This document shows positions 2,916-34,341 of a stretch of 64,000 nucleotides of DNA, piece after piece. The position numbers and the translations under genes were made by a program. Within the stretch, counting starts at the first letter, position 1. Each line of letters opens with the position of its first letter. This DNA is from a virus (Duplodnaviria > Caudoviricetes): positions 1 to 64,000 of IMG/VR virus record IMGVR_UViG_3300032225_002102; one strand, 5' to 3'. The notes beneath the pieces were generated by a model that was not told where the DNA came from, ran no database searches, and saw only the letters and a program-made list of their open reading frames with translations.

Positions 2916-3061
2916 GTTATTAACATTTTTTATTAATTTTACTAAATTACTTGTAAAGTAAAATAATTAATTTTATATTACCAATTTTTAATATTAATTA
3001 TTAAACAACGTTAATTTTAATCTTTTAGGTAAAAATTACAACAATTTAAAACTGGTATTAA

Positions 3062-3284
3062 TAGCAATAGCTAGTGCATAGTACCCCTCTACTAAATTTA
3101 TTTTGCTTGTACTATTTGCCACTGAAGCTTTATTTCAATAGGGGAACTCAAAATTTAGAAAAGCAACTGATTATACAGTTTTCTTGAAGAAGTTGTTCAG
3201 GGGTCTTACTTTATCTGAACCAACCAGTTATCTCAGTGGAAGTTTAGTAGAAGAAGCTCAACCCTACTAATAAGCTAAATGCTA
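3062..3284. ncRNA. Candidate multi-stem structured RNA/DNA element
   Basis: Complementary pairs: ATAGTAC 3078-84/GTACTAT 3109-15; CCACTGA 3119-25/TCAGTGG 3233-39; AACTG-attata-CAGTT; GTTCAG/CTGAAC; TCTACTAAA 3088-96/TTTAGTAGA 3243-51; closing TAGCA/TGCTA. No ORF. Confidence 0.4.
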
Positions 3285-6846: not shown

Positions 6847-6899
6847 TTCATTATTATTTTACAAAAAAAGTAACCCCCTATTTCTAGGAGGTTTTCTAA

Positions 6900-7004
6900 T
6901 TACTTCATTTTCTTACCACCTGTTTGATACATAGTAGCAGATGGTTTTGCTGGCATAGGTTTTGCTGCAGGTTTTTTAACCATTGGTTTTTTTGTCATTT
7001 TCAT
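6900..7004 (-). CDS. 34-aa Lys/Pro/Met-rich basic peptide carrying YQTGG
   Basis: Not in ORF track. MKMTKKPMVKKPAAKPMPAKPSATMYQTGGKKMK*. Start coupled by TAATG to the orphan ferritin tail; hairpin follows near 6872-6892. Confidence 0.65.
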   Translation of the reverse strand: MKMTKKPMVKKPAAKPMPAKPSATMYQTGGKKMK

Positions 7005-7084
7005 TACTTCAAAAATTTAAGTTTATAAATTATTTTCTCTAACCCACTGATACTTTCTTGTAACATATTATCTATTTCATCATA
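7004..7084 (-). pseudogene. Orphan duplicate of the 3' end of the ferritin-like gene
   Basis: Translates YDEIDNMLQESISGLEKIIYKLKFLK*, versus YDEIDNKLQEFVGELDKIMYKLKFLK* at the end of 8060..8452. Confidence 0.8.
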
Positions 7085-8060
7085 AGTTGGAGCTCACCAA
7101 TTCTAAATCTATTTTACTAAAACATTCATACATACCTCCAAATTTAATTTTAGGTAAATATTTAAATTCTTTATGAGAATGTTGAAGTAAATGTTCTAAT
7201 TTACATATATTAAAACTCTCATCTGTTATTTCTTTTAATATTTTATAATTATAAGGCATAGTTGCTTTGTTTAGAAATCTATTTTTAATTTTTTTAAAAC
7301 TTTTGCCAATTTTATAAAATTCTTCTTCTTCATTCCAACATTTAATTATATATACTTTAAAAGAATCAAAGTTTTTAGATTGTAAACCTTGTTTTGTCCA
7401 TTGAGAATCTGACCAAGTATTAAAAATATTATCAAGAGATAATTGAGTTTTAATAATTCCACATTTTTTACATCCTACTCCACTTAAATGACTATCAGCA
7501 GTTTGTTCAAATATACCATGTTCTTTACATAATATTTTAACTTTTAAACGTGCTTTTACATATTTTACTAAAGAATAATCATATTTGTTTTTATGAATTA
7601 ATAAAGATTTATTAATAAAAGTTTCTGTATCATAATTATTTTTAATACTTACTGTTTCTTTACCACATAAAGTACAACCACTTCCTCTTAAATGTAAATC
7701 AGGTGTTTGAAAAAAAGTTATATTATGTTTATTACATTTAATTTTTACTTTGTTTTTACATCCATTATATTCTACTAAATCATAATTATATTTATCTTTA
7801 TGTATTTTTTTAGCATTTACAATAAAATTTAATAAACTAGTTCTTTGTTTAGTAATTGATGATTCTGTTCCACAAACTTTACAACCATAACCATATAAAT
7901 GATTTTCTGGAGTTTGATTAAATACACCATGTATTTTACAAATTATTTGAACTTTTTCTCCTGATTTTTTATAATCAACTTTTTCATAACTATATTTATC
8001 GTTATGGACTTTGATAGCTTTGCTAATAAACTTTTCTGTGTTACTTAATTTTGTACACAT
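7080..8060 (-). CDS. Free-standing homing endonuclease (3 zinc-ribbon repeats plus GIY-YIG/T5orf172-like domain)
   Basis: Three repeats KVxIxCxxHxxFxQTxxxHLxGxGCxxCG; C-terminal VYII...FYKIGKS...GGMYECF. Confidence 0.8.
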   Translation of the reverse strand: MCTKLSNTEKFISKAIKVHNDKYSYEKVDYKKSGEKVQIICKIHGVFNQTPENHLYGYGCKVCGTESSITKQRTSLLNFIVNAKKIHKDKYNYDLVEYNGCKNKVKIKCNKHNITFFQTPDLHLRGSGCTLCGKETVSIKNNYDTETFINKSLLIHKNKYDYSLVKYVKARLKVKILCKEHGIFEQTADSHLSGVGCKKCGIIKTQLSLDNIFNTWSDSQWTKQGLQSKNFDSFKVYIIKCWNEEEEFYKIGKSFKKIKNRFLNKATMPYNYKILKEITDESFNICKLEHLLQHSHKEFKYLPKIKFGGMYECFSKIDLELVSSNL

Positions 8061-19900: not shown

Positions 19901-22122
19901 ACACTACCAATAGAACTTCCCATATTAGAACCTGTATCTCTAATAGCTTCTGTTGTAGGGTCTTTTAAATTATCTGAAATCCAAGTTGCAAATATAATTG
20001 CTAAAGTATATTGTTTTTTGTTAAGTAGTTTATATTTAGCTTGTTCTTCTGCAATACTAAAAGAACCTTTTGCAGTACCATATACTTCTGCTTCGAGTTT
20101 AAGTTGGTTTCCTAAGTTAGGTTGAATAAAATGAACATCAGGAGAATGAAATGTATATTTCCCTTGATTGGTAAAAGTTTGTGGTGTTATAACTCCATTT
20201 ATAGATTTATAATGTGTATTATTACTCGAAAGTAATTTATCTTCACGTAAATCATTAAAAGGATAATTTGAATATAAATAATTAGTACCTGCTGCAGAAC
20301 AAGAATTAAAATCTAAGTTAGATTCTTTCTTTTCATAATTCCAAACATCATATAGTAATCCTTTAGCTGTAATAGATTCATTACCAACACGATTTCCTCT
20401 TAGAACTTTATATCCTGTAATTCTATCTCTTTGTTCTTGTGTAATAAAATTCTCACTTACTGCTTGATCTAATAAATAATTAATATCTGATTTAATACTT
20501 ATACCAATTGGAAAAATATAATTTTGATTTTCATATATTGTATTATCAGATTGATGTGGAGTTATTAATGTATCAGGAAATTTAAAGTGTCTGATTGGTT
20601 GTCCACATAATTCTCCCCATACTTCGGGAATTGAAGGATAACGTTCTGTAGATTCCCAATAAGAAAACTCACCTTCTTCATATACTGTTTTATCACCACA
20701 TTTAGTATAGTTTATTGGATTACGATAATTTAATTTAGCAGTATTATAGATTTGCCATTTTTGATTACTACTAGTAGAACAACTTAAATTATTAGCAACA
20801 ACATCATTATTACTTACTGAAGAAGTATCATCTATTCCAAATGTATTTTTAGCTCTACTAATTAAAGGGAATACTGGGGATTCATCACCATTATCAAGAG
20901 TGAATTTTATACCATAAGGATAAACTTCATCTCTCATTCCACTCCTATAATTTTGAGCAAATTCTGGATCTGAATAATCTCCTTCTTTAGCAACTACTGT
21001 ATTCCATTTAGTTACAATTCTATTTACAATAGGTTGAAGATTAAATAGTTCATAACCTTGAAGTTGAGATTTAAATAAAATATTATTAGCAATTTCAATA
21101 TCTCCACTATTCTTGTAAAATGGGTATTTAGTAAGAAGTAATTCTAAAGATATTGAAGTACCCTCATTATCTACATCAATCCATTGTGTTTGTGATATAG
21201 GTAATGTTGCTTTTTGTTTATAGGTAGTTATCCCTTTAATCGTTTCTACAGAAGCAATAGTAAAATATTTATATCTCGAATTAGTAGTTAATTCTGTTAT
21301 ATTTATTTTAATACCTTTATTTGATTCTTCTTTACCTAAATCAAATATGTCATAACCTTGTGTAAGAGATTTAAAAGGGGTTAGGGGTAATCCTTTTGCA
21401 GTTGAATAAGCAACTAGATAAGAATATTTTCCATTTAATTTACTTCCTCCTGGAATTAATTCTAAATCTAAAGCTGGATAATTTATAGATGGATACCATT
21501 GTGTTTTACCACACTCTAATCCTGCATAAACAGGAGTACATAGTGTACCAGTATTTACTTTAAAATCTTCGTTTAATGTAAAATCATTATTATCATCTAA
21601 ATCAAAATAAATAAATCTATCTACATCATAACCATTAACAAAATATAGGTTAAAAGTACAGTCTGTAAGCTTATATTCTAATTGTAAAGGGTATTGTTCA
21701 CTCCACTTAAAACAGTTTGTTGTAAGTATTGTTTTTGTATTACAAATAGCTATTGTTGTATCTAATTCCTTTTCAATTACTTTAATATTATCACAAGATT
21801 CTGTTATAACATCTGAAGATAATAAATCTTTTTTAGCATAAGAATAAGTAAGAAATTTTTGTTGTTTTGTTTCTTTATTATAAATACAAACTAAATTTTT
21901 ATCAAATTCTACAATAGATAAAGTACCTAATACTATTTCATTATTTGCTAAACTAAAACATTTTACATTTGAAGAAGCATTAGAATAGAAAGGAAATGAT
22001 TGCTCTCCTGAAAAGTTTTCAGTAGCTGCATTTAAAGCAAAACTAACTGTTTCACCAGTATCTTGTAATTGGTTGATGTCTGTTGATATACCTTTTATCG
22101 GAACTTGAAATTCTATCTGCAT
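16927..22122 (-). CDS. Tail stabilisation/muzzle protein (P22 gp10-like), 1731 aa
   Basis: Size, synteny and crAss-type motifs: MRDEVYPYGI, YWESTERYP, IRHFKFP, FGGDTFINRF, WTLSYN..WMSFHSFLP. Confidence 0.8.
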   Translation of the reverse strand: MQIEFQVPIKGISTDINQLQDTGETVSFALNAATENFSGEQSFPFYSNASSNVKCFSLANNEIVLGTLSIVEFDKNLVCIYNKETKQQKFLTYSYAKKDLLSSDVITESCDNIKVIEKELDTTIAICNTKTILTTNCFKWSEQYPLQLEYKLTDCTFNLYFVNGYDVDRFIYFDLDDNNDFTLNEDFKVNTGTLCTPVYAGLECGKTQWYPSINYPALDLELIPGGSKLNGKYSYLVAYSTAKGLPLTPFKSLTQGYDIFDLGKEESNKGIKINITELTTNSRYKYFTIASVETIKGITTYKQKATLPISQTQWIDVDNEGTSISLELLLTKYPFYKNSGDIEIANNILFKSQLQGYELFNLQPIVNRIVTKWNTVVAKEGDYSDPEFAQNYRSGMRDEVYPYGIKFTLDNGDESPVFPLISRAKNTFGIDDTSSVSNNDVVANNLSCSTSSNQKWQIYNTAKLNYRNPINYTKCGDKTVYEEGEFSYWESTERYPSIPEVWGELCGQPIRHFKFPDTLITPHQSDNTIYENQNYIFPIGISIKSDINYLLDQAVSENFITQEQRDRITGYKVLRGNRVGNESITAKGLLYDVWNYEKKESNLDFNSCSAAGTNYLYSNYPFNDLREDKLLSSNNTHYKSINGVITPQTFTNQGKYTFHSPDVHFIQPNLGNQLKLEAEVYGTAKGSFSIAEEQAKYKLLNKKQYTLAIIFATWISDNLKDPTTEAIRDTGSNMGSSIGSVVGGATAAAFGIPPQVGSAVVGALGGVLGGMIGSNLAQNSPFFSFSSLTFKSSVKLAEAEKFLTILKLLSNYRDYQYQYQAVGKYNQISTLANNGNKIRNIVNGEYLDANSKVTLRDGKFFNNYGRESSVYLSVNQNLPSTTNIDESRITLKDVSSLTTTNIDSTDTINCYKFKITATQGLFAVWGKLCTPLSVAGNDPGNSQQDFEELSPGRWFVVGEKIDQFKTADSNLIITATPCYRSIYTKQYVGTFANRKLDLGDLDISVVENCLPYTTTTTLVIKNECDCNNTTSTKIASYYASIKNNRLNQYGSIFDINWLETTSGSFKLTDSNISIFGGDTFINRFSFKRKHLFFNNSTFRLPDSTDINYSLIPNVAYPSYFFDTLVKEEPTYISNLENNIFAFPFTGFIPTSLIRDLLKILKNSVFDITKWFKSPNYKLDCLVIEGELEIPLNSVKGLMYLYYYGVPSYITESTINTDLRDRGKELEQDFYPHQQDLSFWLQEKNVSPKQDNFYIYDKSYSKQSTESVNFQYDNFFKGEVDCKSNFPQRVIYTSQSSEIDDNYLPDNYLINRALDYYDFELKDGRLISIKGIEGNKVLVRQENSASVFNAYIEINTNQDTALLSVGNIFGNKPVKFTKPTVGYFGTQHKALLNTPFGHISVDSKRGNVFVLANNGQGLEEISNHNMRNWFKENLPFQIEKHFPNVNIDNAFNGIGLSMVYDNRFNCFYITKLDYSPLLDNIIYNGENFTINNNILDLKDKRYFSSKCWTLSYNFHTKSWMSFHSFLPNFYIENIDNFDSGTQGGVWKHSVTNKSFQTYYGKKYPFIIESSTKTKLEQEIIEDVNFYLDVVKYVNDYDFYFKPNKSFNKAVIYNRLQNSGLLELINKTNDVRESTLYPIKLNDRRKILINHKEELHSFNQFEDLAKPETPIWLNNSNNVDKELNISAFSYKDANMGVKKIRSNQTKIRLINDIETKYQYIYKGLFTKTSKSNR

Positions 22123-22963
22123 TACTTGGTAAATTAAATATTTCTAATGATTGTGGGAGTTCTTCTGCATACTTTACCATCCTCTGAAATGTAGGAAGTT
22201 TTTGATTAAATAGAGCTTCTTGCATAGATTTTGTATGCTCTTGTTCTGCTTTTTGCATACGTTGAGCAAAATCTCCTTCCGCATTATAATAAAGTTGTAA
22301 AAAAATCTCGTATGTTAAATAATCTTCTATTGCTTTAATTACATATTGATCATCAGGTATCATTGGATAACCTTCTTCATCTTGTGCATAAGCATAATAT
22401 TGTAAATGTATTGTACCTTCTTCAAAGTTAAAGTACATTTTTTTATTATCAAAATTAAAATGATCTTTCTCTTTTGAATAAAGATTTTCACATTTTGTAT
22501 GACATCTATTTTTTTTAACTTTTTTATCTAATGATAACAAACTTCTTTCACAAAACTGTCTTTCAATTGGAGTTTCAGTTTGTTCAACATACATTTTTTG
22601 AGTAACATATTCTTTAGTACGTACTATCTCACATTTATCATAACAAATAGTATCTAAAATATTATCTGAATAAACGGTAATAGGTCTTGAGTTTAAATAA
22701 TATCTTACTTTTGAACCATTAGTATTACATTCATTACATTTATGTACAACCCAAAGTAAATGAAAATCTTCAGGTAATAAACATTGATAGTTTTCAATAT
22801 CTATTATCTCTTCTTTTTCAATTGATAAACCCATACCTAATCTATCAATCATCCATTTACTCCATGTAATTAAACTAACTTCATCAATTAATGAAGCTTC
22901 ATCTAAAGAGTATAATCTTGATTTTACTCTATTTACTATTTGGTCAATACTTATATAATTCAT
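22052..22963 (-). CDS. Tail tubular/ring protein (P22 gp4-like)
   Basis: YFNFEEGTIHLQY..DEEGYPMIPD..AIEDY; immediately upstream of muzzle. Confidence 0.7.
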   Translation of the reverse strand: MNYISIDQIVNRVKSRLYSLDEASLIDEVSLITWSKWMIDRLGMGLSIEKEEIIDIENYQCLLPEDFHLLWVVHKCNECNTNGSKVRYYLNSRPITVYSDNILDTICYDKCEIVRTKEYVTQKMYVEQTETPIERQFCERSLLSLDKKVKKNRCHTKCENLYSKEKDHFNFDNKKMYFNFEEGTIHLQYYAYAQDEEGYPMIPDDQYVIKAIEDYLTYEIFLQLYYNAEGDFAQRMQKAEQEHTKSMQEALFNQKLPTFQRMVKYAEELPQSLEIFNLPSNADRISSSDKRYINRHQPITRYW

Positions 22964-23433
22964 TAGTATATTTGTTCATCGTAATCTCGTTCATAATTCT
23001 TTAAAATCTTTGCTAAAGGACGCTTTAAATTTGCTCTATGAGGTTTAAATTTAAGTAATCCTAAATCAGTACAATACATTCTCTTATATTTAGGTCTTAA
23101 TATATTTCCTAAATGAACATGTATTTGTTTAATCCATTTAAATTTATATATGTAACCAAAAGTATGATTGTTATATTCTTTTTCTTGTCCTTTAGTTTTT
23201 ACTACTTTTTCAAGTGTAATTACTCCACCTTTTTGTTTACCTTTTACTATTTTAAGTAAACCTAAAAATTTAGGAAGAATAAATCCTTGTCTTGAATTTA
23301 AAATAAATTCTTTTGCAATTTCAACATTTATTTCAGTTATAAATTTTCTATAATCTATGATTGATAAATGTTTATATTTTTGAATCTGATATTGTTCTTT
23401 AGTAAAAAAATTTACTTTATTTATCTTGCTCAT
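22963..23433 (-). CDS. IHF/HU-like protein of the crAss tail module
   Basis: GFILPKFLGLLKIVK pattern, basic, conserved position. Confidence 0.6.
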   Translation of the reverse strand: MSKINKVNFFTKEQYQIQKYKHLSIIDYRKFITEINVEIAKEFILNSRQGFILPKFLGLLKIVKGKQKGGVITLEKVVKTKGQEKEYNNHTFGYIYKFKWIKQIHVHLGNILRPKYKRMYCTDLGLLKFKPHRANLKRPLAKILKNYERDYDEQIY

Positions 23434-24074
23434 TTTGAATTTGCATTTGAATTTGTATTCTCATCTTTAGGAATACTCTTCATAATTGTTAATTGTTTGA
23501 TTGTAGATTCTACTACACCTCCAATTAAATAAGGTATGCAAGGAAAGGGTTGATCTAGTAATGAACACGTTCCTTCTTCTAATCCTAATGTTGGATCTGT
23601 AAATATACCAAAAACATTTACTTTTTCAACTTCTGAATCTGGTAGTATTAAGTAATTATCTTCAATCCAATAATATTTAGTTCTACGAGGTTTATATGGT
23701 AAGTTCTTAATACTTTTATATTTATTAACACTTATTTCTACATAATCAACATCATTTGATAAGTTATAAACTTTAATCAAACTTCCAAAATTAGATTGGT
23801 AAAAAGATGGTAATGGTTTAACACTACGCATCATATTAGAACAGTTTGATAATTGAATACAACCTTCTTCATAAGGTTCTAATTCAACACATTCTATTTT
23901 TTTAAATATAGAAGTATTCTTAAATAGTTTACGATTATCTGCATCACGCTTTATAAATAAAGCAGTTATGTTAATACCTGTCCAATAAATAAATTCACCT
24001 GATAAATAATCATCAGATGAAATTGAATTTAAATTGTTTCTTATTTGCGAAATAAATTCACGTATTGTTTGCAT
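23430..24074 (-). CDS. Tail ring protein
   Basis: YYWIEDNYLIL..V..GIFTDP..FPC pattern and synteny. Confidence 0.55.
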   Translation of the reverse strand: MQTIREFISQIRNNLNSISSDDYLSGEFIYWTGINITALFIKRDADNRKLFKNTSIFKKIECVELEPYEEGCIQLSNCSNMMRSVKPLPSFYQSNFGSLIKVYNLSNDVDYVEISVNKYKSIKNLPYKPRRTKYYWIEDNYLILPDSEVEKVNVFGIFTDPTLGLEEGTCSLLDQPFPCIPYLIGGVVESTIKQLTIMKSIPKDENTNSNANSK

Positions 24075-24075
24075 A

Positions 24076-25104
24076 TTATTTATAGCTTAACACCCAATTG
24101 ATAAGTGCGTATTTTGTACCTTCTAATACTGGATTTCCTGAATGTAAAGATTTAGGATTACATTTATCATTAATTAAATTTTTCCAAATAACAAGTTTAC
24201 CTTGTTTAGGATAAACTATTTCTTCTGTTGTTGGAAAATAAGTTTCTCCTCCACTAAAATTATCATTTAAATAAATAATAGTAGTAAACAATCTATCATT
24301 TTCTTTATTTAAACAATCAAGATGAGGTTTAAATTCTTCTCCTAATTTATATTTTATTAATTGCCATCCTTCAAACTTTAAATTACCTATTGTTGGTACA
24401 GCATTTCTAATCTTTTCTGTAATTCCAAAAGTATCATTAAACCATAAGGTAGATGAACTTCTTGAATAATCATCGTGTACTATTTTTCCATCTTGAATAA
24501 CTTCACTTTTATTAAATCCAATCTCTTCTAATTCTTGAATAATTTGATTACATAATTCAGAATCAAGTAGATCTATTTCAAGATATTCTCCTTTTTGAAT
24601 ATTCCAATGAAAAAATACATTCATTAAAATACCTTCTGGATTTGTTGATTCAATAGGATTTCTCCAATGTGTTAAATCTCTACCTTTTAAAAGTACACAA
24701 TCACTATTATTTAAAGCAGCATCATTAACTCCTCCACTATAATTTTCTGCAAATATAGGTTGAGATAATCCTGTTGTATTTTCAATTTGTAATGAAAGAG
24801 TTATATCTAAACCTTCTCTATCAAGATGTTTATTAAGAGTACTATCTACATTATAAATACGAGAATAACTATTTTCTTTTTGTAGTTTGAGATTTGTAAC
24901 TGATTCTACAATTGGAGTTAAATAATTAAAATATTCTTCTATTTCTGGTATTCTATCCAATCCGTATGAGTTACGATAGTTTGTAACATCATCCTCAAGA
25001 GAAAGTTTATTTTCAGATTGTTTATTCAAAATTACATTTTTAATATGTAATCTCTGTTCTTCTGTAATAATATTATTTAATCTAGTAATTCCACTTATAA
25101 ACAT
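24076..25104 (-). CDS. Tandem 2OG-Fe(II) oxygenase; C-terminal domain prolyl 4-hydroxylase-like
   Basis: Domain 1: SYSRIY..HLDRE..HWR..VFFHW. Domain 2: SRSSS..EGWQLIKY..EFKPHLD..RLFTTIIYLND..GGETYFP..SLHSGNPVLEGTKY, with the P4H-type terminal Lys. Confidence 0.85.
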   Translation of the reverse strand: MFISGITRLNNIITEEQRLHIKNVILNKQSENKLSLEDDVTNYRNSYGLDRIPEIEEYFNYLTPIVESVTNLKLQKENSYSRIYNVDSTLNKHLDREGLDITLSLQIENTTGLSQPIFAENYSGGVNDAALNNSDCVLLKGRDLTHWRNPIESTNPEGILMNVFFHWNIQKGEYLEIDLLDSELCNQIIQELEEIGFNKSEVIQDGKIVHDDYSRSSSTLWFNDTFGITEKIRNAVPTIGNLKFEGWQLIKYKLGEEFKPHLDCLNKENDRLFTTIIYLNDNFSGGETYFPTTEEIVYPKQGKLVIWKNLINDKCNPKSLHSGNPVLEGTKYALINWVLSYK

Positions 25105-25874
25105 GGCTTATATTCTTTTAGTTTTTCTTTTAATATTTTATTAATATTTGATAAACCTTCTACTTCTTTATCTAAATCTTCTGTATTAAAATAACTATGT
25201 TTAAAAAATAAAATATCATTATTATAATAAATTGGTTGACAATAATGAATAATATTTTTTATATCTTTAGTTTCAATATCCCAATCATTACAAATTCCAA
25301 AATTAGGTAATTCTATTATATTTATATTTTGTTTAGTAACACTATATACTAATCCATACATATCAGATTGCCAATTTTTAGTATTATTATAAATAATATT
25401 ACTAAATATAACCATATCATCTATATAAGATTTAAATGTTTTAAAATTGGTAACAAAGGGATATCTGATTGCTTTTTTTACTTCTATATTAAATCCTTCT
25501 TGATGAATAAATTCATTAATAAAAGATTGTCCTATAATAGTGTTTTCTTCAGGTACTAAATCAATACTATTTAATAACAACATATCAGGATCTAAAAATA
25601 ATAATATATCACTATCTTTAAATCTATTATCTCTTGCAAGAATTTGCTCTTGTTTATATCTATTTCCTACTTTATAACCATAACATTCATTACTAAAATC
25701 TGGAAAATCTATTTTTATTATATCATTAGGTAAAGATATTGTAGTATTACTTTCTTGTGAACACATTACAACTAATTTTCCTTGTTGATTAACAGCTTTT
25801 ATACTGTTATATAATACAATAATTTGCCAATATTGATAATCAGAATTACTAATACTTACTATAATGTAATTCAC
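25095..25874 (-). CDS. GT-A glycosyltransferase resembling plant hydroxyproline O-arabinosyltransferase / peptidyl-serine galactosyltransferase (GT95/GT96)
   Basis: Ordered motifs YQYWQ, GYKVGNR, FLDPDM (DxD), WQSDMYG, IIHY, matching recalled HPAT/SGT1 motifs YxxWQ, GYxVxNR, (E/D)(P/A)D, WxxEMY, (I/L)xHY. Confidence 0.7.
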   Translation of the reverse strand: MNYIIVSISNSDYQYWQIIVLYNSIKAVNQQGKLVVMCSQESNTTISLPNDIIKIDFPDFSNECYGYKVGNRYKQEQILARDNRFKDSDILLFLDPDMLLLNSIDLVPEENTIIGQSFINEFIHQEGFNIEVKKAIRYPFVTNFKTFKSYIDDMVIFSNIIYNNTKNWQSDMYGLVYSVTKQNINIIELPNFGICNDWDIETKDIKNIIHYCQPIYYNNDILFFKHSYFNTEDLDKEVEGLSNINKILKEKLKEYKPCL

Positions 25875-25893
25875 ATCTTTTGTTTTATAAGTT

Positions 25894-26853
25894 TTAATAC
25901 CATTCTCTAATCCAAAAATTTATTTGTTTTAAATTTTGTGGTAAATATACTTTATTCCATGCATATTTACCAACTTTCTCTAACATTTTTCCATTTTCTA
26001 AAATTAGATTATCATCTTGGGAATATAAAAACTTATAATCTTCAGTAAATCCATTCTGTTTTCTCATTCTTTGAATAACAGCACTAAATGTAGATTTAAG
26101 TGTTCCTATAAAATTAGAACTATAACTTGCTACAATCATTGCAACTAATCCTTGTTCAGCAGAATCTAAATCATTTACTTTATCTAAATAGTTTACATTA
26201 TATTTACTTTCTATTTCTTTAAAATAATTTCTATCAGAATCATCAGTTAAAATTAATAATTTTTTATTATCAAAATTATGTTCTAATACATTTATAAAAT
26301 CAGAAACTTGTATTTTTCTTGATACATTATGATCATTTAAAAAATCACCTCTCCTTATATGGATACAATTAAAACTTGGTAATCCTTTAAGAATATCTAA
26401 AGCTATTTTCTCATACTTTTTTTTAGGTTTAATAACATGTTGAATAAAGTTTTCTACTTTATATTTTTCATGTTTATCTAAACAAAATAGATAAGAATAA
26501 AACCCCAGCGTATTAGAATCTTTTGTACTAAATGTAGTGTAATCATTTAAGTTAATTATTTTATTTCTACCATTAATGAATTCTTCATCGGGAATTTGAT
26601 TCTTGTATATTATTGTATCGTGTAAATCATAAGGTAGAATACTTTCTGTATAAATATGTTGATTATGAACTATGTTATAATCTATATCATATAAATCAAA
26701 TAAAGTTAAATTCTTTTCAGAATTAAATATTTTACCAGAATGAATAAAATTTATATTTTGATTTGATAGTAAAGCTAAAATGAGTGCATTTTCAGCACTC
26801 ATTAAAGCGTTACCCATACCAACGTGACCATTCTGGTATAAATGATAATTCAT
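25894..26853 (-). CDS. O-fucosyltransferase-like GT-B enzyme
   Basis: GMGNALM, CIHIRRGDF, ILTDD, FIGTLKSTFS: the GDP-fucose-binding motifs of POFUT/FUT8/NodZ-type enzymes. Confidence 0.8.
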   Translation of the reverse strand: MNYHLYQNGHVGMGNALMSAENALILALLSNQNINFIHSGKIFNSEKNLTLFDLYDIDYNIVHNQHIYTESILPYDLHDTIIYKNQIPDEEFINGRNKIINLNDYTTFSTKDSNTLGFYSYLFCLDKHEKYKVENFIQHVIKPKKKYEKIALDILKGLPSFNCIHIRRGDFLNDHNVSRKIQVSDFINVLEHNFDNKKLLILTDDSDRNYFKEIESKYNVNYLDKVNDLDSAEQGLVAMIVASYSSNFIGTLKSTFSAVIQRMRKQNGFTEDYKFLYSQDDNLILENGKMLEKVGKYAWNKVYLPQNLKQINFWIREWY

Positions 26854-27302
26854 TAATACTTAATTGAATTTGTTGAATAATCTATTTTAAATTCATGTGT
26901 TTTAAATATATTAGAACCTATTATTCCTACTATATTATATCCAGAATTTATTCTAATAGTTCTAACTAAATAATTTAAATTTCCTCCTTTAAAAGAACTT
27001 GTAAATTGCAAACTATCTATTCCTACATTTACATTATCTAAATTATAATAATTAGTTTTTCCACCTAACCCTAATACTTCATCGGATATACTTGTTAACT
27101 TAAAATTATATTTTTTAGATTGAGTAATATCTAATATAGACATAGATGCTCCTGTATCTACCATTAAATAACAAGTTTTATTGTTTAAAGTAGCTTTTAT
27201 AATAGGTACTTTTTCTATATCAACAAAAGGAATCTCTTTTTCAAGAGATCCTTTACATTGAATTATTAATAAACTAAACAACACAATTATAATGTTATAC
27301 AT
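26853..27302 (-). CDS. Retropepsin-like aspartyl protease with lipoprotein-type signal
   Basis: MVDTGAS and GIIGS motifs. Likely start MYNIIIVLFSLLIIQC at 27302 (track start 27320). Confidence 0.8.
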   Translation of the reverse strand: MYNIIIVLFSLLIIQCKGSLEKEIPFVDIEKVPIIKATLNNKTCYLMVDTGASMSILDITQSKKYNFKLTSISDEVLGLGGKTNYYNLDNVNVGIDSLQFTSSFKGGNLNYLVRTIRINSGYNIVGIIGSNIFKTHEFKIDYSTNSIKY

Positions 27303-28537
27303 CTTTGAGTATTTCCACATGAGCTAATTAAATTAAATGTAGCACCAGAAGTAGAAACTCCTGTTGCAGAACTTGTTATTGTATAACATTCTCTGATATT
27401 TCCATTTCCTGTAGATTCTGAATAAACATTTCCTATTACTAAATTACTAGAACTTGCTACAATTGTAGAAGTTCCTCCACTAGAACATACTGTTACATTA
27501 TACTGATAACCATTTATCGCTACTGGTGCAGCTACTGGAGTTGCTACTGGAGATGTAGTAGGTGCAGCTACTGGAGTTGCTACTGGAGATGAACTACAAG
27601 AACAAGTGCTTGTTCCAATTAAAGTAACACCTTGTAATGTTACAATAGGAGCTGATGTATTCGTTTGTCGAATGCTTTGAACTCCTTCCGAAGTACAAAT
27701 ATTAACTGTACTATTTCCTAATAAAGTTCCTGATAAAGTTCCATTTACAGTAGGATAAGTATAGTTATAAGTATTGCTTGAAGCATTTTGAATACTATAA
27801 TAATTACAACTTGCAACTGGTGTAGATACTGGTGTTGCTACTGGAGTACTAACAGGTGTAGATACAGGTGTTGCTACTGGAGATGTAGTAGGTACAGCTA
27901 CTGGTGTAGATACAGGTGTAGATACAGGTGTTGTAGTAGGTGTACTTACTGGTGTTGAAACTGGAGATGTACTAGGTGTTACTACTGGTGTACTTACAGG
28001 TGTAACTGTTGGTGTTGAAACTGGATCACATGATACAACTAAACCATTAAGAATATTAGTAGTACAACCTATAATTCTAGCATCAAAGTAAACAGATAAT
28101 CCAGTAGAACTTGCAGTATAAGAGTAACCATTATTTCCTGCATTTGCAGGTTGATAAATACCTCCATTAATACTAAATTCTATAGCTTCACCATTATTAT
28201 TATTTACAGATACTCCTATTGTAGTACTATTTCCATTACAAACTCTAGTAGAAGCATTCCATCCTAGAATATTATTACATTTATTATAACCAGGAGTTAC
28301 ACCAGTTACTACAATTTGATTGCTAAAAGATCTAGTTGCTCCACAATTAGTACTAGTTAATTGTAAAGTATGAGTACCAGTTCTTGTCCATTGTATAGAA
28401 ACACTTGATGCTGTATTATTAGGAGATATTGTTCCTGCATCAGAAGGAGTAATACTCCATACATTTGTTACTGGAGTAGTAGCATTACTTGGTGTATAAC
28501 TACTATTATATGTTACTATTTGATTTAATATAGGCAT
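27287..28537 (-). CDS. Fibre/adhesin-like protein with Ig-like domains and Thr-Pro repeat stalks
   Basis: Cys-flanked beta domains separated by (T/A)P(V/T)(S/A/T) tetrapeptide runs. Confidence 0.65.
   Translation of the reverse strand: MPILNQIVTYNSSYTPSNATTPVTNVWSITPSDAGTISPNNTASSVSIQWTRTGTHTLQLTSTNCGATRSFSNQIVVTGVTPGYNKCNNILGWNASTRVCNGNSTTIGVSVNNNNGEAIEFSINGGIYQPANAGNNGYSYTASSTGLSVYFDARIIGCTTNILNGLVVSCDPVSTPTVTPVSTPVVTPSTSPVSTPVSTPTTTPVSTPVSTPVAVPTTSPVATPVSTPVSTPVATPVSTPVASCNYYSIQNASSNTYNYTYPTVNGTLSGTLLGNSTVNICTSEGVQSIRQTNTSAPIVTLQGVTLIGTSTCSCSSSPVATPVAAPTTSPVATPVAAPVAINGYQYNVTVCSSGGTSTIVASSSNLVIGNVYSESTGNGNIRECYTITSSATGVSTSGATFNLISSCGNTQRCITL
27813..28025 (-). repeat. 12-bp-period coding repeat (TPVS/TPVA)n
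   Basis: Units such as ACTGGTGTAGAT and ACAGGTGTTGCT; a shorter run lies at about 27520-27590. Confidence 0.85.
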
Positions 28538-28549
28538 ATTTTTATTTAT

Positions 28550-29935
28550 TTAAACTGTTAAAATAACTTTATACAATTCACACTTAGTTCCTTTTACCAT
28601 TACTGTTTCATTTAAACCAGTAATACTATCAAATACTCTAACTTGTTTAGTATCTAAATTAGTTGCCCAAGGATTATGAACTAAAATTAATGCTTCTGAT
28701 TTAGTATTATTATATTTTAATTGAACAACAGGTTCACTATATAATTTATTATATGGTACTAATTTAAGATTACCTGTTCTTACATTTCCATTATATTCAA
28801 AATCAGGGGTTTGCCAATTATTAGTTGTACCTTCAATAATATCTTTATATAAAGAAACATGATAAAGAGCTAAATCCCAAAACAATCTACATGATTTCCA
28901 AACTCTAGCATTATCTAATGCCCAAGTATCTGTACCCACTTGAACTTGAATTAAATTAGGACTTGCTGTATCAACTCCAAAAGGTTCTCTTGCAGGATCT
29001 TCACTATAGATACTTGGCATAACACCTTCCCATCCTATGATACCATCTCCTACTGTTAAAGAAACAATAGCTACATTATACATATACTCAGCATTAGCAT
29101 TAGCTTTTGCTCCTGATAAATTTATAAAAGTACCATCTTCTCTTTTTCTATCTACACTTAATCCTGGAAAGCCATCAACTCCTTCATTCTCTGTCCACAT
29201 TAAACTATATAATGGGATATTATTATTATACTTCAATCTTAATAGTTGTTTTTTATAGATATACAAAGCTGTAAAATCATATAAACTATCATTAGTACTA
29301 TATATAGCATCAAAAACAGCATTACATCCTGCATCTACTTGAGCAGAATATATAGTACTAGGAGTAGTATAGTAATTTAATAATGCTGATGTATCATTAT
29401 TATACCATAAACTAAGAGGAATAACATCTATCCAAGAATAAATACCAATTTGAATTCCTGGATTAGCAGCTAAAGCAGCACCTAGTATTGTTCTAAGTTT
29501 ATTAGCTTTATTAGAGTTTCCTGTTCCAGTTGTTGCATTATATCCCATAACTGCTCTCCCATCATATCCCAAAGGCATTTCTCCATTTAACCATTGTATT
29601 TTTTGCGGATTTTGAGCCATTCCCCATTGAGATTCATCTGTTGGATTACTTCCATTATAAGATAAATCTGTAAAAACAGCTAATTTATCATTAGTATAAT
29701 TAGTTAATCCTCCATGGTTAGTATAAAACATGTTATGTCCTATTCTTTCCAAAGGGTGTTTATTACCACTAATCAAAGGTATCTCTGTATCTTGTCTTAA
29801 CATAGATGCAGATTTTTTATTAGTTGGTATAGTTACTGCTGGAAAGTTATCATACTTAGGTAATCTTTTTCCTTCTGTAAATGATTTTGATTCCCAAAAC
29901 CAATCAGGAGTGGGAGTTGATATTACTTTACTCAT
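28550..29935 (-). CDS. Putative receptor-binding or carbohydrate-active protein, 461 aa
   Basis: Aromatic-rich alpha/beta protein between two fibre genes, beta-rich C-terminus. Fold not established. Confidence 0.35.
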   Translation of the reverse strand: MSKVISTPTPDWFWESKSFTEGKRLPKYDNFPAVTIPTNKKSASMLRQDTEIPLISGNKHPLERIGHNMFYTNHGGLTNYTNDKLAVFTDLSYNGSNPTDESQWGMAQNPQKIQWLNGEMPLGYDGRAVMGYNATTGTGNSNKANKLRTILGAALAANPGIQIGIYSWIDVIPLSLWYNNDTSALLNYYTTPSTIYSAQVDAGCNAVFDAIYSTNDSLYDFTALYIYKKQLLRLKYNNNIPLYSLMWTENEGVDGFPGLSVDRKREDGTFINLSGAKANANAEYMYNVAIVSLTVGDGIIGWEGVMPSIYSEDPAREPFGVDTASPNLIQVQVGTDTWALDNARVWKSCRLFWDLALYHVSLYKDIIEGTTNNWQTPDFEYNGNVRTGNLKLVPYNKLYSEPVVQLKYNNTKSEALILVHNPWATNLDTKQVRVFDSITGLNETVMVKGTKCELYKVILTV

Positions 29936-31992
29936 TATTTTGCAATTAAAAGTGAATATGAAAATAAATTTTGTGATCCAGGATTAGCAGTATTTAAAAC
30001 AACTATTTGGATTTCTACAACTGTTCCTTTATAAATTTCAGGAATTCTGTAAGGAGTAGATAAAGGAGTAGCTGAAACTATTTCTTTATTGAATTTCCAA
30101 TACTTAGAAGTTCCTGTGCTATTACCCCAAGCTGAATCTGAAATAGTTAACCCATCAGCAGCTATTTCTAATTTAGACATCCAATATAAGAAATTACCAT
30201 TATCTAAATATAATGCATATCCATAACCTGTAGTTCCAGATCCAGAATTAAAATGTTTAAATGGTGCTAATACTTTAGTGGTAGAAGGATTAATAACAGG
30301 AGATACTGTAACATTAGATTCAATTTCTGAAACAACTCCATTTGTAACTTTAACTTTCTTTAAAATATTACCTACAAAATATGCTAAATAACCTGTTCCA
30401 AATAATGTACCTGAACTAGTTCTATACACATTTGAACCCGAATTAAATCCGTTTGATGTATATACACTATCAATCTCATTAATAGCATTACTAAACTTAT
30501 TTAGTATCTTATCATATACATCATTATTAGAAGTATATAAATTAGGATAACCTATATAAACAGATTTTCTTTCTGTAAGATTACTTACAGGAGTACTCGT
30601 TGGTGTAGCAACAGGTGCAGTAATTGGAGTACTGATAGGTGTACTCACAGGAGTTGTTACTGGAGTTACAACAGGAGTACTTACAGGAGTAGCAACTGGT
30701 GTAGTAACTGGTGTTGCTATTGGAGTTGCAGTAGGTGTACTTGTAGGTGTACTTGTAGGTGTCGCTACTGGTGTAACACTACATGATAAAAGAGATCCTT
30801 CAATATAGGTAGTACAACCTATAATTCTAGCTCTAAAATAAACAAGATTACCTGTAGATGTTGCAGTATAGGTATAACTATTAGTTGTTCCTACATTTGC
30901 AGGTACATAAGTAACACCACTATTAGTACTAAATTCTACAGCTTCACCGTTATTACCACTTACAGATACATTAAAAATAGTGTTATTACCGCTACAAGTT
31001 GTAGTAGAAGAATTCCATCCTAGAATATTATTGCATTTATTATAACTAGGTGTTAACACAGGAGTATTTACTGGTGTTGTTACTGGTGAACTAACAGGTG
31101 TTGCAATAGGTGTTACTGGTACAGGGGTTGTTGGTACAGGTGTAGATACTGGTGTAACAACAGGAGTACTTGTAGGAGCACTTGTAGGTGTTATTGGTAT
31201 AGGAGTTGATGTAGGTGTTGGTATTGAAGTATCAAATGTTATTGATGATAATGCAACACAATTTACAACTATCGGTGTTGATGGTGTTGGTGTTGTAGGT
31301 GTTGCTGTTGGGGTTGCTACTGGAGTACTAGCACTACATAATCTAAAATTACCATCAGCATACTCTGCACATCCTAATAATCTTGCTTTTATTTTTTGTA
31401 AACTTCCATTAGAAGGAAAATTAAAAGTAAAATTACTTGGAGAACCATTTATCCATGTAATACCTTCATCTGAACTAAACTGAACAATACGAGAACCTGC
31501 ATTAATAACATTAACTTGTAATGTTGTAACCGCTCCTTGACAAATTGTTACAGGATTACCAAAAACAGGTACAAAACAAATATTAGGTATATTATCAATA
31601 CATATTTTTACACAATTACAATCTACTGCTAATTGAAGTTGTTGTCTACCTAAACTATTAGTAACAATAGTTTTAGTAATACAATTACCAGCAATCACTT
31701 TATCAAAAAGATAACCTTCTGAAGTATCATCTATTGAAATTTTTACTTTTTCATCAAATAAACCTCGTACTTGACATAATCTTGCATCAAGTTTTTCTAA
31801 AATAGTTTTGAGATTAGTACCGTTTCTAATACCAAAAAAGCACATCAAATTGGATGTACTACAATTAGTATCCATATTATAAATTACACCTTCAGCATCT
31901 ATTTTATCTAACGGTGCATTTTCATAATTTAATGGTACACAATTACAAGTATCTTGACATTGGTAACATCTACCACAAGTTCCTGAACACAT
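29935..31992 (-). CDS. Cys-rich fibre protein with three Thr-Pro repeat stalks
   Basis: N-terminal Cys cluster, DEKVKISIDDTSEGYL motif, two paralogous Cys-bounded beta domains, TP runs. Confidence 0.7.
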   Translation of the reverse strand: MCSGTCGRCYQCQDTCNCVPLNYENAPLDKIDAEGVIYNMDTNCSTSNLMCFFGIRNGTNLKTILEKLDARLCQVRGLFDEKVKISIDDTSEGYLFDKVIAGNCITKTIVTNSLGRQQLQLAVDCNCVKICIDNIPNICFVPVFGNPVTICQGAVTTLQVNVINAGSRIVQFSSDEGITWINGSPSNFTFNFPSNGSLQKIKARLLGCAEYADGNFRLCSASTPVATPTATPTTPTPSTPIVVNCVALSSITFDTSIPTPTSTPIPITPTSAPTSTPVVTPVSTPVPTTPVPVTPIATPVSSPVTTPVNTPVLTPSYNKCNNILGWNSSTTTCSGNNTIFNVSVSGNNGEAVEFSTNSGVTYVPANVGTTNSYTYTATSTGNLVYFRARIIGCTTYIEGSLLSCSVTPVATPTSTPTSTPTATPIATPVTTPVATPVSTPVVTPVTTPVSTPISTPITAPVATPTSTPVSNLTERKSVYIGYPNLYTSNNDVYDKILNKFSNAINEIDSVYTSNGFNSGSNVYRTSSGTLFGTGYLAYFVGNILKKVKVTNGVVSEIESNVTVSPVINPSTTKVLAPFKHFNSGSGTTGYGYALYLDNGNFLYWMSKLEIAADGLTISDSAWGNSTGTSKYWKFNKEIVSATPLSTPYRIPEIYKGTVVEIQIVVLNTANPGSQNLFSYSLLIAK
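30585..31328 (-). repeat. Three Thr-Pro coding repeat tracts (about 30585-30778, 31048-31225, 31272-31328)
   Basis: TPVATPTSTPTSTPTATPIATPVTTP and similar. Confidence 0.85.
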
Positions 31993-32019
31993 ATTTTATT
32001 AATTTAAATTTTAATAATT

Positions 32020-32616
32020 TTACACATTTGAAATTAATATACTCTGAATAGGGATACATACTACATTACATGCTGTACCACCTGTTATCCATCTAAAATT
32101 ACCACAACCATCAAATTGATAAATTTCACTTACTGTTCCAGTACATCTTTGAGTATATGGAAAATAATTTACCCAATTAGGTACACAAATAGTTACACAA
32201 GCATTTCCAGATATTTTACCTATTTGTGTTTGATTATAAGTTGGAGAACAAGGATTAAGATCTTTTTCAATAATGCGAGATTGAGCTTGAAAACAAATAA
32301 AATTTGAAGTTTCTATCCAACTAGGGGTATTATTGCATTTTCCTTCATTCACCAAAATCCATCTGGTATTTCCACAACCATCACTTTGTTGCTTTCTACT
32401 ATTACAATTTACACATTCTTCAAGACCTGTGTTTTTCCAATTAGTTTCACAAGAAAAACTACAAGGATTACCAGATGGTTTAATTGTTCGGATCTTATTA
32501 AATGATTTGCTTTTTGGGTTTATATCTTTTTCTCGCTTATAAGAAATTCCATTAATACAAAGATCTATATTAAGATTTACCCAAATTGGATTTCTATTAA
32601 ATAAATTACAAAGCAT
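32020..32616 (-). CDS. Cys/Trp-repeat structural protein
   Basis: Repeats W-x5-8-C...(DxNPCSPTYNQ or DGCGNxRW). Confidence 0.55.
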   Translation of the reverse strand: MLCNLFNRNPIWVNLNIDLCINGISYKREKDINPKSKSFNKIRTIKPSGNPCSFSCETNWKNTGLEECVNCNSRKQQSDGCGNTRWILVNEGKCNNTPSWIETSNFICFQAQSRIIEKDLNPCSPTYNQTQIGKISGNACVTICVPNWVNYFPYTQRCTGTVSEIYQFDGCGNFRWITGGTACNVVCIPIQSILISNV

Positions 32617-33049
32617 CTGTTATTTTTTGTAATACTGTTTTTAAATCAGAATAAATAGTAAAACCAGCACCTGCTGAATCTACAACTCCAGGTTTTTCAA
32701 CACTTACTAAACGATTATTTAAAGCAAGTATTGTCGCATTAATTGTATTTATTTGAGATTGCAACTGATTAATTTGAGTAATTCTTGCAGAATTTAACCC
32801 AATTAAATAATCAATTACTTGTTGATAGGTTGATATATTTGGTTGTCCTGCAACTACAGGATTAGCAATTTGTACTTCATTAATAATGTGTAATCCAAGA
32901 ATTTCAATAATTGCTTGAAGTGACATTCCATTAGTAATGCTAATTGCTTGTAAAATAGAAGGAGATACATCAGGTTTAATCTTATAAAAAACATCTGTAG
33001 AATCTACTTGTGTTGATCCACAATTTTGAGAACAGTTATTTTCACACAT
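32606..33049 (-). CDS. Coiled-coil fibre-associated protein
   Basis: Heptads ITQINQLQSQINTINATILALNNRL; N-terminal Cys. Confidence 0.55.
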   Translation of the reverse strand: MCENNCSQNCGSTQVDSTDVFYKIKPDVSPSILQAISITNGMSLQAIIEILGLHIINEVQIANPVVAGQPNISTYQQVIDYLIGLNSARITQINQLQSQINTINATILALNNRLVSVEKPGVVDSAGAGFTIYSDLKTVLQKITDAL

Positions 33050-34316: not shown

Positions 34317-34341
34317 AGAGGGAGGATAACCTCCCTCTATT
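34317..34341 (-). terminator. Terminator after abundant structural gene
   Basis: AGAGGGAGG-ataa-CCTCCCTCT. Confidence 0.75.

Follow-up and report, generated by a model that had tools for sequence, protein, structure and literature searches.

We analyzed a block of seven open reading frames (ORFs) at positions 24076-31992 of a virus record from IMG/VR (IMGVR_UViG_3300032225_002102), which measures 129,291 bp and is estimated to be 87% complete; its first 64 kb form the stretch of DNA referred to here as the window. The block, on the minus strand, associates two genes for fibre-like proteins carrying long proline-periodic stalks with a set of enzyme genes including a double 2-oxoglutarate (2OG) and Fe(II)-dependent oxygenase. 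It begins with a 685-aa fibre-like protein (29935-31992) and a 416-aa fibre-like protein (27287-28537), both proposed here as substrates, and a 461-aa protein of no known family is encoded between them (28550-29935). Then come a retropepsin-like aspartyl protease of 155 aa (26853-27320), recognized by the Pfam families RVP and Asp_protease_2, and a GT-B glycosyltransferase (GT) of 319 aa from the fucosyltransferase superfamily (25894-26853; GT11/GT23/GT65/GT68-like), identified from Pfam, a motif and a structural model. The last two genes code for a GT-A enzyme of 259 aa with a GTG start (25095-25874), tentatively placed by its family alignment in the HPAT family (PF23452; related to GT95/GT96), and for the 342-aa double oxygenase (24076-25104), identified from Pfam and from sequence matches in the PDB. 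An earlier note on this DNA had described stalk genes followed by a protease, an O-FucT-like GT, an HPAT-like GT and an oxygenase. All of these ORFs are indeed present in that order on the minus strand, overlapping or abutting, with junctions within the block that consist of overlaps of 1-34 nt or gaps of 1-19 nt.

The same note had placed the block between tail ring genes. This turned out to be incorrect, as CrAss_Ring_2 (23430-24074, minus strand; PF25702, E 9e-18), our synteny anchor, and CrAss_Ring_1 (22052-22963, minus strand; PF24228, E 1e-23) both lie on the downstream flank, and nothing ring-like was recognized upstream of the block. Across 22-34.5 kb the sole convincing intergenic terminator-like site is a hairpin of 9 bp, 6 of them GC, with a T-rich tail (34317-34338, minus strand), which separates a 776-aa gene from the small genes ahead of the fibre genes. 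Since there is no other intergenic site of this kind from 34.3 kb to the ring genes, the block reads as one late operon. Matches to consensus promoters were no commoner there than in shuffled sequence.

The C-terminal domain of the oxygenase (aa ~173-340) matches the Pfam family 2OG-FeII_Oxy_3 (PF13640) over aa 248-338 with 53.1 bits for a cut-off of 27 (E 6.6e-14). Its sequence matches in the PDB are prolyl 4-hydroxylases (P4Hs) only, namely those from Bacillus anthracis (2.2e-16), PBCV-1 (8.9e-10) and Chlamydomonas (2.4e-8) and the human C-P4H alpha-2 (5.7e-8). The HxD...H iron triad and the lysine that binds the C5 carboxylate of 2OG are intact: none of H261, D263, H321 and K331 varies in 20 homologues, and the B. 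anthracis P4H has identical residues at the aligned positions. Judged from its sequence, the C-terminal half is a domain of the prolyl-4-hydroxylase type, and hydroxylation of peptidyl-proline at C4 is its predicted reaction. The comparison with P4H suggested by the earlier note thus proved right for this half, whose best solved relatives are all P4Hs, but the enzyme is a double oxygenase and its second domain had been missed. This N-terminal domain (aa ~5-168) displays invariant R, Y, HxD, H, R and H residues in its family alignment. Its family is labelled "ferrochelatase" in PHROGs and GenBank records; because HxD...H and the arginine are conserved, we consider this label wrong and the domain to be a 2OG oxygenase. 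Compared with the PDB, its sequence gave chance-level matches only. When a hidden Markov model (HMM) of this domain was iterated, it drifted to both domains, so that its locus counts stand for a 2OG oxygenase domain of either type. In the comparison loci and contigs, labelled L001-L157 (the window locus being WIN), the second domain precedes the P4H domain in the crAss-like lineage and follows it in aquatic phages (L007-L060). The second domain also occurs as a stand-alone gene of 176-184 aa, for example in L002 (8451-8981) and L015 (9038-9565).

In the 685-aa protein, the Pro-periodic runs span aa 221-240, 255-315 and 405-468 (nt 31273-31332, 31048-31230 and 30589-30780) and total 145 residues, with 48 T, 40 P, 21 V, 16 S and 11 A. 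Those of the 416-aa protein span aa 169-240 and 315-338 (nt 27818-28033 and 27524-27595), that is 96 residues. The five stalks taken together (241 residues) are rich in T, P, V, S and A, have TP as main dipeptide, contain no Lys at all, and are encoded by imperfect 12-nt repeats. Pro-repeat runs were found in just 2 of the 181 ORFs of the whole 129-kb record, both abutting the cassette. The 685-aa protein is built of a conserved N-terminal region of 219 aa, three stalks, Cys-rich globular inserts and a C-terminal domain, and shares one globular domain with the 416-aa protein (54% identity). Its N-terminal 219 aa share 57-78% identity with the one TP-fibre found in each of the three closest relatives, L155-L157, and the last 76 aa of the 416-aa protein are 67-89% identical to the C-terminus of this TP-fibre in L155 and L157.

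For products of cytoplasmic assembly, both stalk proteins contain unusually many cysteines (22 in the 685-aa protein, where CxxC-like clusters occur at the N-terminus, and 13 in the 416-aa protein), and similar Cys-rich inserts are observed in the PT-repeat proteins of aquatic phages. When the fibre genes (window 27287-32616) are compared with L155:3735-8594, L156:3414-8201 and L157:3812-8585, they look shuffled at the stalks, and the 492-512-aa upstream protein of these relatives corresponds to the 198-aa gene of the window, described below, plus a domain resembling the C-terminus of the 685-aa protein. Distal domains may be swapped by recombination at the repetitive DNA of the stalks.

The oxygenase of L155, L156 and L157 is 92%, 81% and 78% identical to that of the window, respectively, and their Ring 2 is 74-97% identical. 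The gene order in these three loci is small Cys-rich genes, a homologue of the 461-aa protein, one TP-stalk fibre (599-625 aa, with Pro runs of 103-113 aa), a FucT-like GT (70-92% identical), the oxygenase and Ring 2. A search with a three-sequence oxygenase alignment gave only four distant loci. In L149 and L151 (oxygenase 62% and 45% identical), SP/TP-repeat proteins are followed by a different HPAT-like subtype, the oxygenase and Ring 2, with no FucT-like GT and no protease. The oxygenases of L150 and L152, which are 42-43% identical, adjoin SP/TP-repeat proteins as well, three TP proteins preceding the FucT-like GT and then the oxygenase in L152; L001 has a TP-rich neighbour. Seven crAss-like loci (WIN, L003, L149, L151, L155, L156 and L157) carry one or two [S/T/A]P-repeat proteins, with runs of 91-162 aa, directly upstream of the enzymes and Ring 2, whereas Lbo-JY46, Fpv1 and csAssE-Sib display neither enzymes nor repeats in ~28 kb around the ring genes. 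Repeats are therefore present in 7/7 loci with the oxygenase versus 0/3 without it (Fisher p = 0.008, the seven loci being related). L152 also contains an IS605 OrfB/TnpB-type gene (2148-3275) 2 kb upstream of its TP-repeat genes. One of its TP-repeat proteins (5944-7797) carries the SprB repeat PF13573, presumably a gliding-adhesin repeat of Bacteroidota, which hints at the host phylum.

The association extends to phages of other groups. With the GT-A profile we found 54 aquatic IMG/VR loci, which were compared, with 10-kb flanks, with 80 control loci around the neck gene of similar phages. The arrangement in the aquatic loci is a two-domain P4H followed directly by a fusion protein of 900-1500 aa that combines HPAT-like, O-FucT and PF11397 domains, sometimes with a PLOD-type GT in addition; we take PF11397 to be the Skp1 hydroxyproline (Hyp) GlcNAc-transferase family. 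ORFs for very large PT/PS-repeat proteins with Pro runs of at least 50 aa (up to 485 aa) were observed in 19 of the 54 loci versus 1 of the 80 controls (Fisher p = 5e-8), and this one control is probably an antisense reading of a collagen-like gene. As the case loci are related by descent, the Fisher values exaggerate their independence. Dereplicated at 70% identity, the loci form 16 clusters, of which 7 were positive, and the negatives were mostly short contigs. L002, the aquatic contig examined in detail, has T4-like neck and tail genes. Two contigs binned as giant-virus metagenome-assembled genomes (the GVMAG contigs L052 and L059) contain HPAT-like/FucT genes, plus a P4H in L052; these may be phage contigs binned in error, or the module may extend to giant viruses of eukaryotes.

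Altogether, the co-occurrence predicted by the earlier note is borne out, the oxygenase/GT genes being linked to [S/T/A]P-repeat genes across crAss-like and unrelated aquatic phages. The constant core is the double oxygenase with a [S/T/A]P-repeat structural protein, and the GTs are variable accessories. On the other hand, the idea that the HPAT-like GT and the aspartyl protease are core parts of the cassette had to be abandoned, as the former is missing in the three closest relatives and the latter is limited to a sub-lineage. As the link between oxygenase and repeats never breaks, it is our strongest argument that the repeats are the substrate of the oxygenase. The fusion of HPAT-like and O-FucT domains in aquatic phages points in turn to a functional link between the two separate GTs of the window. 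In each enzyme family, the catalytic residues are invariant across 19-21 diverged homologues.

Among the Pfam families, the GT-B protein scores above the cut-off for GT11 (PF01531; 28.1 bits for 23.9, E 1.5e-6) and below it for O-FucT (PF10250; 28.0 bits for 31.5, E 2e-6). It aligns with the O-FucT domain of the fused phage GTs (BLAST E 5e-9), domains that themselves reach 72-93 bits and up to 1e-26 on PF10250. Its motif HIRRGDF (aa 165-171) is of the HxRRxD type, which we take to be the donor-binding motif of fucosyltransferases; R167 is invariant, and H165, R168 and D170 are found in at least 90% of 20 homologues. The AlphaFold2 model is of moderate quality, with a predicted local distance difference test (pLDDT) of 73 and a template modelling score of ~0.5. 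The top Foldseek matches listed are all fucosyltransferases, that is POFUT2, AtFUT1, FUT8, NodZ and POFUT1 (E <= 5e-6). The relationship to GT65/GT68/GT23 that had been suspected for this gene is thus corroborated both by a fold like those of POFUT2, FUT8, NodZ and POFUT1 and by the HIRRGD motif. The sugar cannot be assigned from the family, because PF10250 also holds enzymes that use sugars other than fucose.

Relatives of the GT-A protein are few. An HMMER scan of 1.8 billion representative sequences returned only 50 of them, a k-mer search just one, and DNA and protein searches against isolated phages nothing. Matches to HPAT with E <= 0.01 were obtained for 12 of the 21 aligned homologues (best 2.9e-16), no other Pfam family was matched, and the fused phage relatives score 28.9 and 41.6 bits. 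GT95 and GT96 have been described as related families (PMC8012813). The ordered motifs reported in the earlier note (YQYWQ, YGYKVGNR, DPDM, WQSDMY and IIHY) are all there and fall on conserved columns of the family alignment, which comprise Q14, N71, D95-P96-D97-M98, W168, M172, H210-Y211 and K225, with D95-P96-D97 invariant. Family sequences matched the PDB at chance level only. The AlphaFold2 model (pLDDT 93) displays a retaining-type GT-A fold, most similar to glycogenin (Z 16.8), LgtC (Z 16.0), BoGT6a and the Skp1 alpha-galactosyltransferase GlaT (Z 15.5), and a fold search of BFVD retrieved generic viral GT-A proteins only. The protein has no membrane anchor, as it starts at the first beta-strand with no hydrophobic N-terminal segment; a few homologues do have one.

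The history of the GT-A gene differs from that of its neighbours. With a GC content of 20.3%, for ~27% in the phage DNA, it is the lowest of the block. In L003 (3419-4186) an HPAT-like gene occupies the same site and is only 35% identical, while the flanking genes are 76-79% identical, and the window protein is nearer to the copy in the unrelated contig L001 (38%) than to that of L003. Its absence in relatives, the 35% identical L003 allele and its GC content lead us to regard the gene as an inserted and exchangeable accessory, in a pattern that looks like cassette exchange of glycosyltransferases. Since the transferases are swappable between phages, the type of glycan is suggested to vary between phages as well.

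We consider it probable that this late-operon cassette serves the post-translational modification of the phage's own fibre stalks. In the cytoplasm of the infected cell, the double oxygenase, consuming O2 and 2OG, would act on prolines of the (T/A/S)-P-x-x repeats in the 685-aa and 416-aa proteins and convert them to Hyp; a further hydroxylation may come from its second domain. Host-made nucleotide sugars would then be attached to the stalks, on Hyp and/or on the abundant Thr/Ser, by the soluble retaining GT-A of the HPAT family and the GT-B of the fucosyltransferase superfamily, and the expected outcome would be an extended, stiff, protease-resistant and glycan-coated rod between globular domains. 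We infer here the stalks as substrate, the residues modified, the sugars used and the physical consequence. The genes suggest, more precisely, Pro hydroxylation of the stalks with an optional and variable O-glycosylation.

Several points weigh against this proposal, besides the relatedness of the case loci. The GT-A gene is absent from L155-L157, where FucT and oxygenase are separated by 4-13 nt and tblastn finds nothing, and no GT was detected in L150, which has the oxygenase and an SP/TP protein; glycosylation of the stalks is thus not obligatory. The GT-A protein of the window reaches 16.3 bits on HPAT for a cut-off of 23.9 (E 0.0068), and its nearest solved folds are generic retaining GT-A enzymes of the GT8/GT6-like type. 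The GT95/GT96 assignment proposed in the earlier note is sustained by the sole Pfam match of the family, which is HPAT, but not by the score or the fold of the window protein itself. Because no GT95/GT96 structure exists, the GT8 likeness neither contradicts nor confirms this assignment. The "fibre" label rests on position and architecture, as DNA and protein searches with the N- and C-terminal domains of the fibres gave no match in isolated phages. As the oxygenase depends on O2, the host would have to be aerobic; the isolated relatives are phages of Flavobacterium, Cellulophaga, a cyanobacterium and Bacteroides. No nucleotide-sugar gene was seen among the ten largest ORFs of the other genome arm, which are all of replication type, in a check that was not exhaustive. 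Finally, for PBCV-1, which encodes the one characterized viral P4H, Hyp was reportedly not detected in virions (PMC7019647).

The variability of the GTs, which appear dispensable while the oxygenase-repeat pair is constant, would also fit a situation where the stalks are hydroxylated but both GTs act elsewhere, either on host envelope glycans, for receptor masking or superinfection exclusion, or on another protein of the phage or the host. The HPAT-like gene is indeed a low-GC insertion of one gene, the nearest GT-A folds include the lipopolysaccharide/glycan GTs LgtC and BoGT6a, and the fucosyltransferase fold includes the glycan-acting FUT8, NodZ and AtFUT1. However, HPAT-like and O-FucT domains are fused and lie directly after the P4H in dozens of aquatic loci that also carry repeats, the only Pfam family matched by the GT-A enzymes is one of protein (Hyp) glycosyltransferases, and the genes are embedded in the late structural operon beside the proposed substrate. 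We therefore regard an action of the GTs elsewhere as rather unlikely. One would also wonder whether the enzymes could target host proteins, such as a translation factor or a ribosomal protein, for takeover of the cell, their adjacency to the repeats being a by-product of a hypervariable tail region. Some members of PF13640 hydroxylate non-structural proteins, cyanophages commonly carry related single-domain 2OG oxygenases without known substrate, and one relative is annotated at its source as a Tpa1-like Rps23 hydroxylase. Yet the tight adjacency of oxygenase and repeats recurs, with other genes around them, in lineages whose oxygenases are only 42-62% identical as well as in unrelated aquatic phages, the controls devoid of oxygenase are also devoid of repeats, and the best matches among solved structures are P4Hs whose substrates are Pro-rich repeat peptides, which makes a host target quite improbable.

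Less credible still, in our opinion, is a reading in which the enzyme genes are inactive or irrelevant passengers and the Thr-Pro stretches just linkers of the ordinary, unmodified kind. PT linkers are common in secreted bacterial proteins, but the association of the enzymes with repeats is non-random, the invariance of the catalytic residues mentioned above is difficult to reconcile with inactive genes, and the 70-92% identity of the oxygenase and the FucT-like GT among close relatives argues for purifying selection. A role in hypermodification of the phage DNA, by a TET/JBP-like oxidation followed by glycosylation of the base, was also envisaged, as phages are known to pair 2OG dioxygenases and GTs for this purpose and "DNA endonuclease" is the erroneous label of some of the oxygenase's neighbours in PHROGs. 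We rejected this last explanation, to which we give hardly any credit: the oxygenase matches protein prolyl hydroxylases and not TET/JBP, the genes belong to the late tail operon while the replication genes sit on the other genome arm, and the linkage to Pro-repeat proteins would be left unexplained. Modification of the stalks by the cassette thus remains the explanation that we favor.

The block is part of a larger virion module of crAss type. From ~44 kb down to ~10 kb every gene lies on the minus strand, in the order portal (phrog_6547, E 1e-79), a weak major-capsid match, a virion structural protein, the fibre/enzyme block, Ring 2, a 156-aa gene, Ring 1 and, beyond it, a muzzle-like protein of 1731 aa. 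The crAss-type assignment comes from the presence in collinear order of Ring 1, Ring 2, the portal and the giant muzzle-like protein. By Ring 1, the closest isolated relative is the Leptolyngbya phage Lbo-JY46, which is collinear and has a muzzle-like protein 40% identical; further isolated relatives are the FpV phages of Flavobacterium psychrophilum, Cellulophaga phages and gut crAss-like phages. A search of IMG/VR for close relatives of Ring 2 found none. On the upstream side of Ring 2, where the window has its stalk genes, csAssE-Sib and Lbo-JY46 carry genes annotated as tail-fibre or carbohydrate-binding proteins. Upstream of the fibre genes and within the same conserved region, two small Cys-rich genes on the minus strand (198 aa and 147 aa; 32020-33049) are 64-88% identical to counterpart genes or gene parts in L155-L157. 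Outside the window, in L063 (8460-10331; genome 72460-74331), a 624-aa AAA_24 ATPase is split by a LAGLIDADG domain, which looks like an intein/homing-endonuclease insertion in a replication or recombination gene.

Two other proteins of the block deserve comment. The 461-aa protein has no sequence match in Pfam, PHROGs or the PDB; it is 31-35% identical to 480-493-aa proteins of L155-L157, with its position conserved. Its nearest clusters in the language-model Atlas are hypothetical proteins of Bacteroidota and Verrucomicrobiota, with a weak GH42 match as sole family lead, and it may be a tail-borne protein that binds or degrades glycans. The aspartyl protease matches RVP with 27.5 bits (cut-off 20.7, E 4e-6) and Asp_protease_2 with 25.7 bits (cut-off 24.3, E 2e-5), and the active-site motif VDTGAS is present in the translation. 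It possesses an N-terminal hydrophobic stretch ending in LIIQC, with Cys22, and the protein is probably exported and possibly lipid-anchored, which would be odd inside a virion operon. Homologues were seen just in L003, L155 and L157 (54-55% identical in the latter two). An unrelated 236-aa gene occupies its slot in L156, and L149-L152 as well as all aquatic loci are devoid of it. The protease is therefore sub-lineage-specific and no core part of the cassette.

Plant walls, collagen and the Skp1 of protists are the textbook cases of protein Hyp and of Pro-rich rods bearing glycans on Hyp or on Ser/Thr; phages are not, and our literature searches retrieved no description of phage-encoded Hyp formation or glycosylation, nor of a P4H with an HPAT-like GT acting on phage proteins. 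A broader and more tentative idea, for which we would claim less than an even chance, is that tailed phages of several unrelated groups make true Hyp glycoproteins in the form of extensin/mucin-like rods, produced in the bacterial cytoplasm with an O2-dependent double hydroxylase, with GT cassettes exchanged so that near-identical phages bear different glycan coats. If so, such "glyco-types" could tune adhesion, host range or resistance to proteases and grazers. Hyp-linked glycosylation, deemed a trait of plants, algae and protists, would then be widespread in the bacterial virosphere, which would raise the question of the direction in which the HPAT family moved between viruses and eukaryotes. 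Should the predicted modification of the stalks be real, phage fibres would be chemically far more elaborate than their genes suggest, the success of infection would be tied to the supply of oxygen and 2OG, and structure prediction and cryo-electron microscopy would have to allow for these modifications. Glycan coats and their immune recognition would also affect host-range engineering and phage therapy. From the comparison of loci, the oxygenase-repeat pair emerges as the invariant core, with interchangeable glycosyltransferases around it. With one substrate segment and two or three soluble enzymes, the system is compact enough to be amenable to work in Escherichia coli without phage culture, and it is a possible source of soluble bacterial-type P4H and HPAT-like enzymes for the production of hydroxylated or glycosylated repeat proteins.

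Several parallels can be drawn with known systems. The alignment with the B. anthracis P4H (PDB 3itq/5hv0) extends over 160 residues (E 2.2e-16) and covers HxD, the distal His and the Lys. This enzyme is likewise a soluble P4H of the bacterial world; with its collagen-like (GPP) substrates, it differs from the phage oxygenase in being a single-domain cellular protein that is not linked to GTs. Another small and virus-encoded enzyme is the P4H of PBCV-1 (PDB 5c5t; 8.9e-10 to the C-terminal domain of the window oxygenase), and the PBCV-1 genome, according to the account of Eriksson et al. (1999) given in PMC7019647, also encodes Pro-rich repeat ORFs. However, PBCV-1 is a eukaryotic giant virus, its P4H is a single-domain enzyme, and it has neither an adjacent substrate gene nor HPAT-like/FucT partners. 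A precedent for the decoration of structural proteins would come from mycobacteriophages, in which Freeman et al. in 2023 reportedly found the Ser/Thr-rich C-terminal tails of capsid and tail-tube proteins to be O-glycosylated by phage GTs. As we propose for the window phage, phage-encoded GTs act there in the cytoplasm on the phage's own structural proteins. The mycobacteriophage system comprises, on the other hand, no hydroxylase and no Pro-repeat stalks, and its GT families, phage groups and hosts differ.

The glycosylation of Hyp in the Skp1 protein of Dictyostelium and Toxoplasma involves the P4H PhyA and then Gnt1 (PF11397), PgtA and AgtA/GlaT (PDB 6mw8). Like the proposed phage pathway, it relies on a soluble, cytoplasmic and O2-dependent P4H followed by soluble GTs. 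Most of the aquatic relatives moreover carry PF11397, fused to HPAT-like/O-FucT domains, and the Skp1 alpha-galactosyltransferase is among the best folds for the GT-A protein. The window phage itself has no PF11397 or PLOD-type GT, and a search of the 129-kb genome with an HMM built on the PF11397 domains of those fusions gave no match. Unlike the stalks, Skp1 is modified at one proline and not along a repeat. In the hydroxyproline-rich glycoprotein pathway of plants and green algae, a P4H acts before HPAT1-3 (GT95, O-arabinosylation of Hyp) and SGT1 (GT96, O-galactosylation of Ser) on extensins and arabinogalactan-proteins. The phage enzymes differ from these in being soluble and would work in the bacterial cytoplasm rather than in the endoplasmic reticulum and Golgi, the type II anchor of HPAT being missing. 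The phage oxygenase is double, the window GT-A lies below the HPAT cut-off and is dispensable in close relatives, and the second GT belongs to the fucosyltransferase superfamily instead of the elongating arabinosyltransferases of GT77/GT47. Like the plant pathway, however, the phage block brings together a P4H-type oxygenase, non-contiguous [S/T/A]-Pro repeats expected to form extended rods, and an HPAT-like GT-A with the DPD, W..DM and HY columns.

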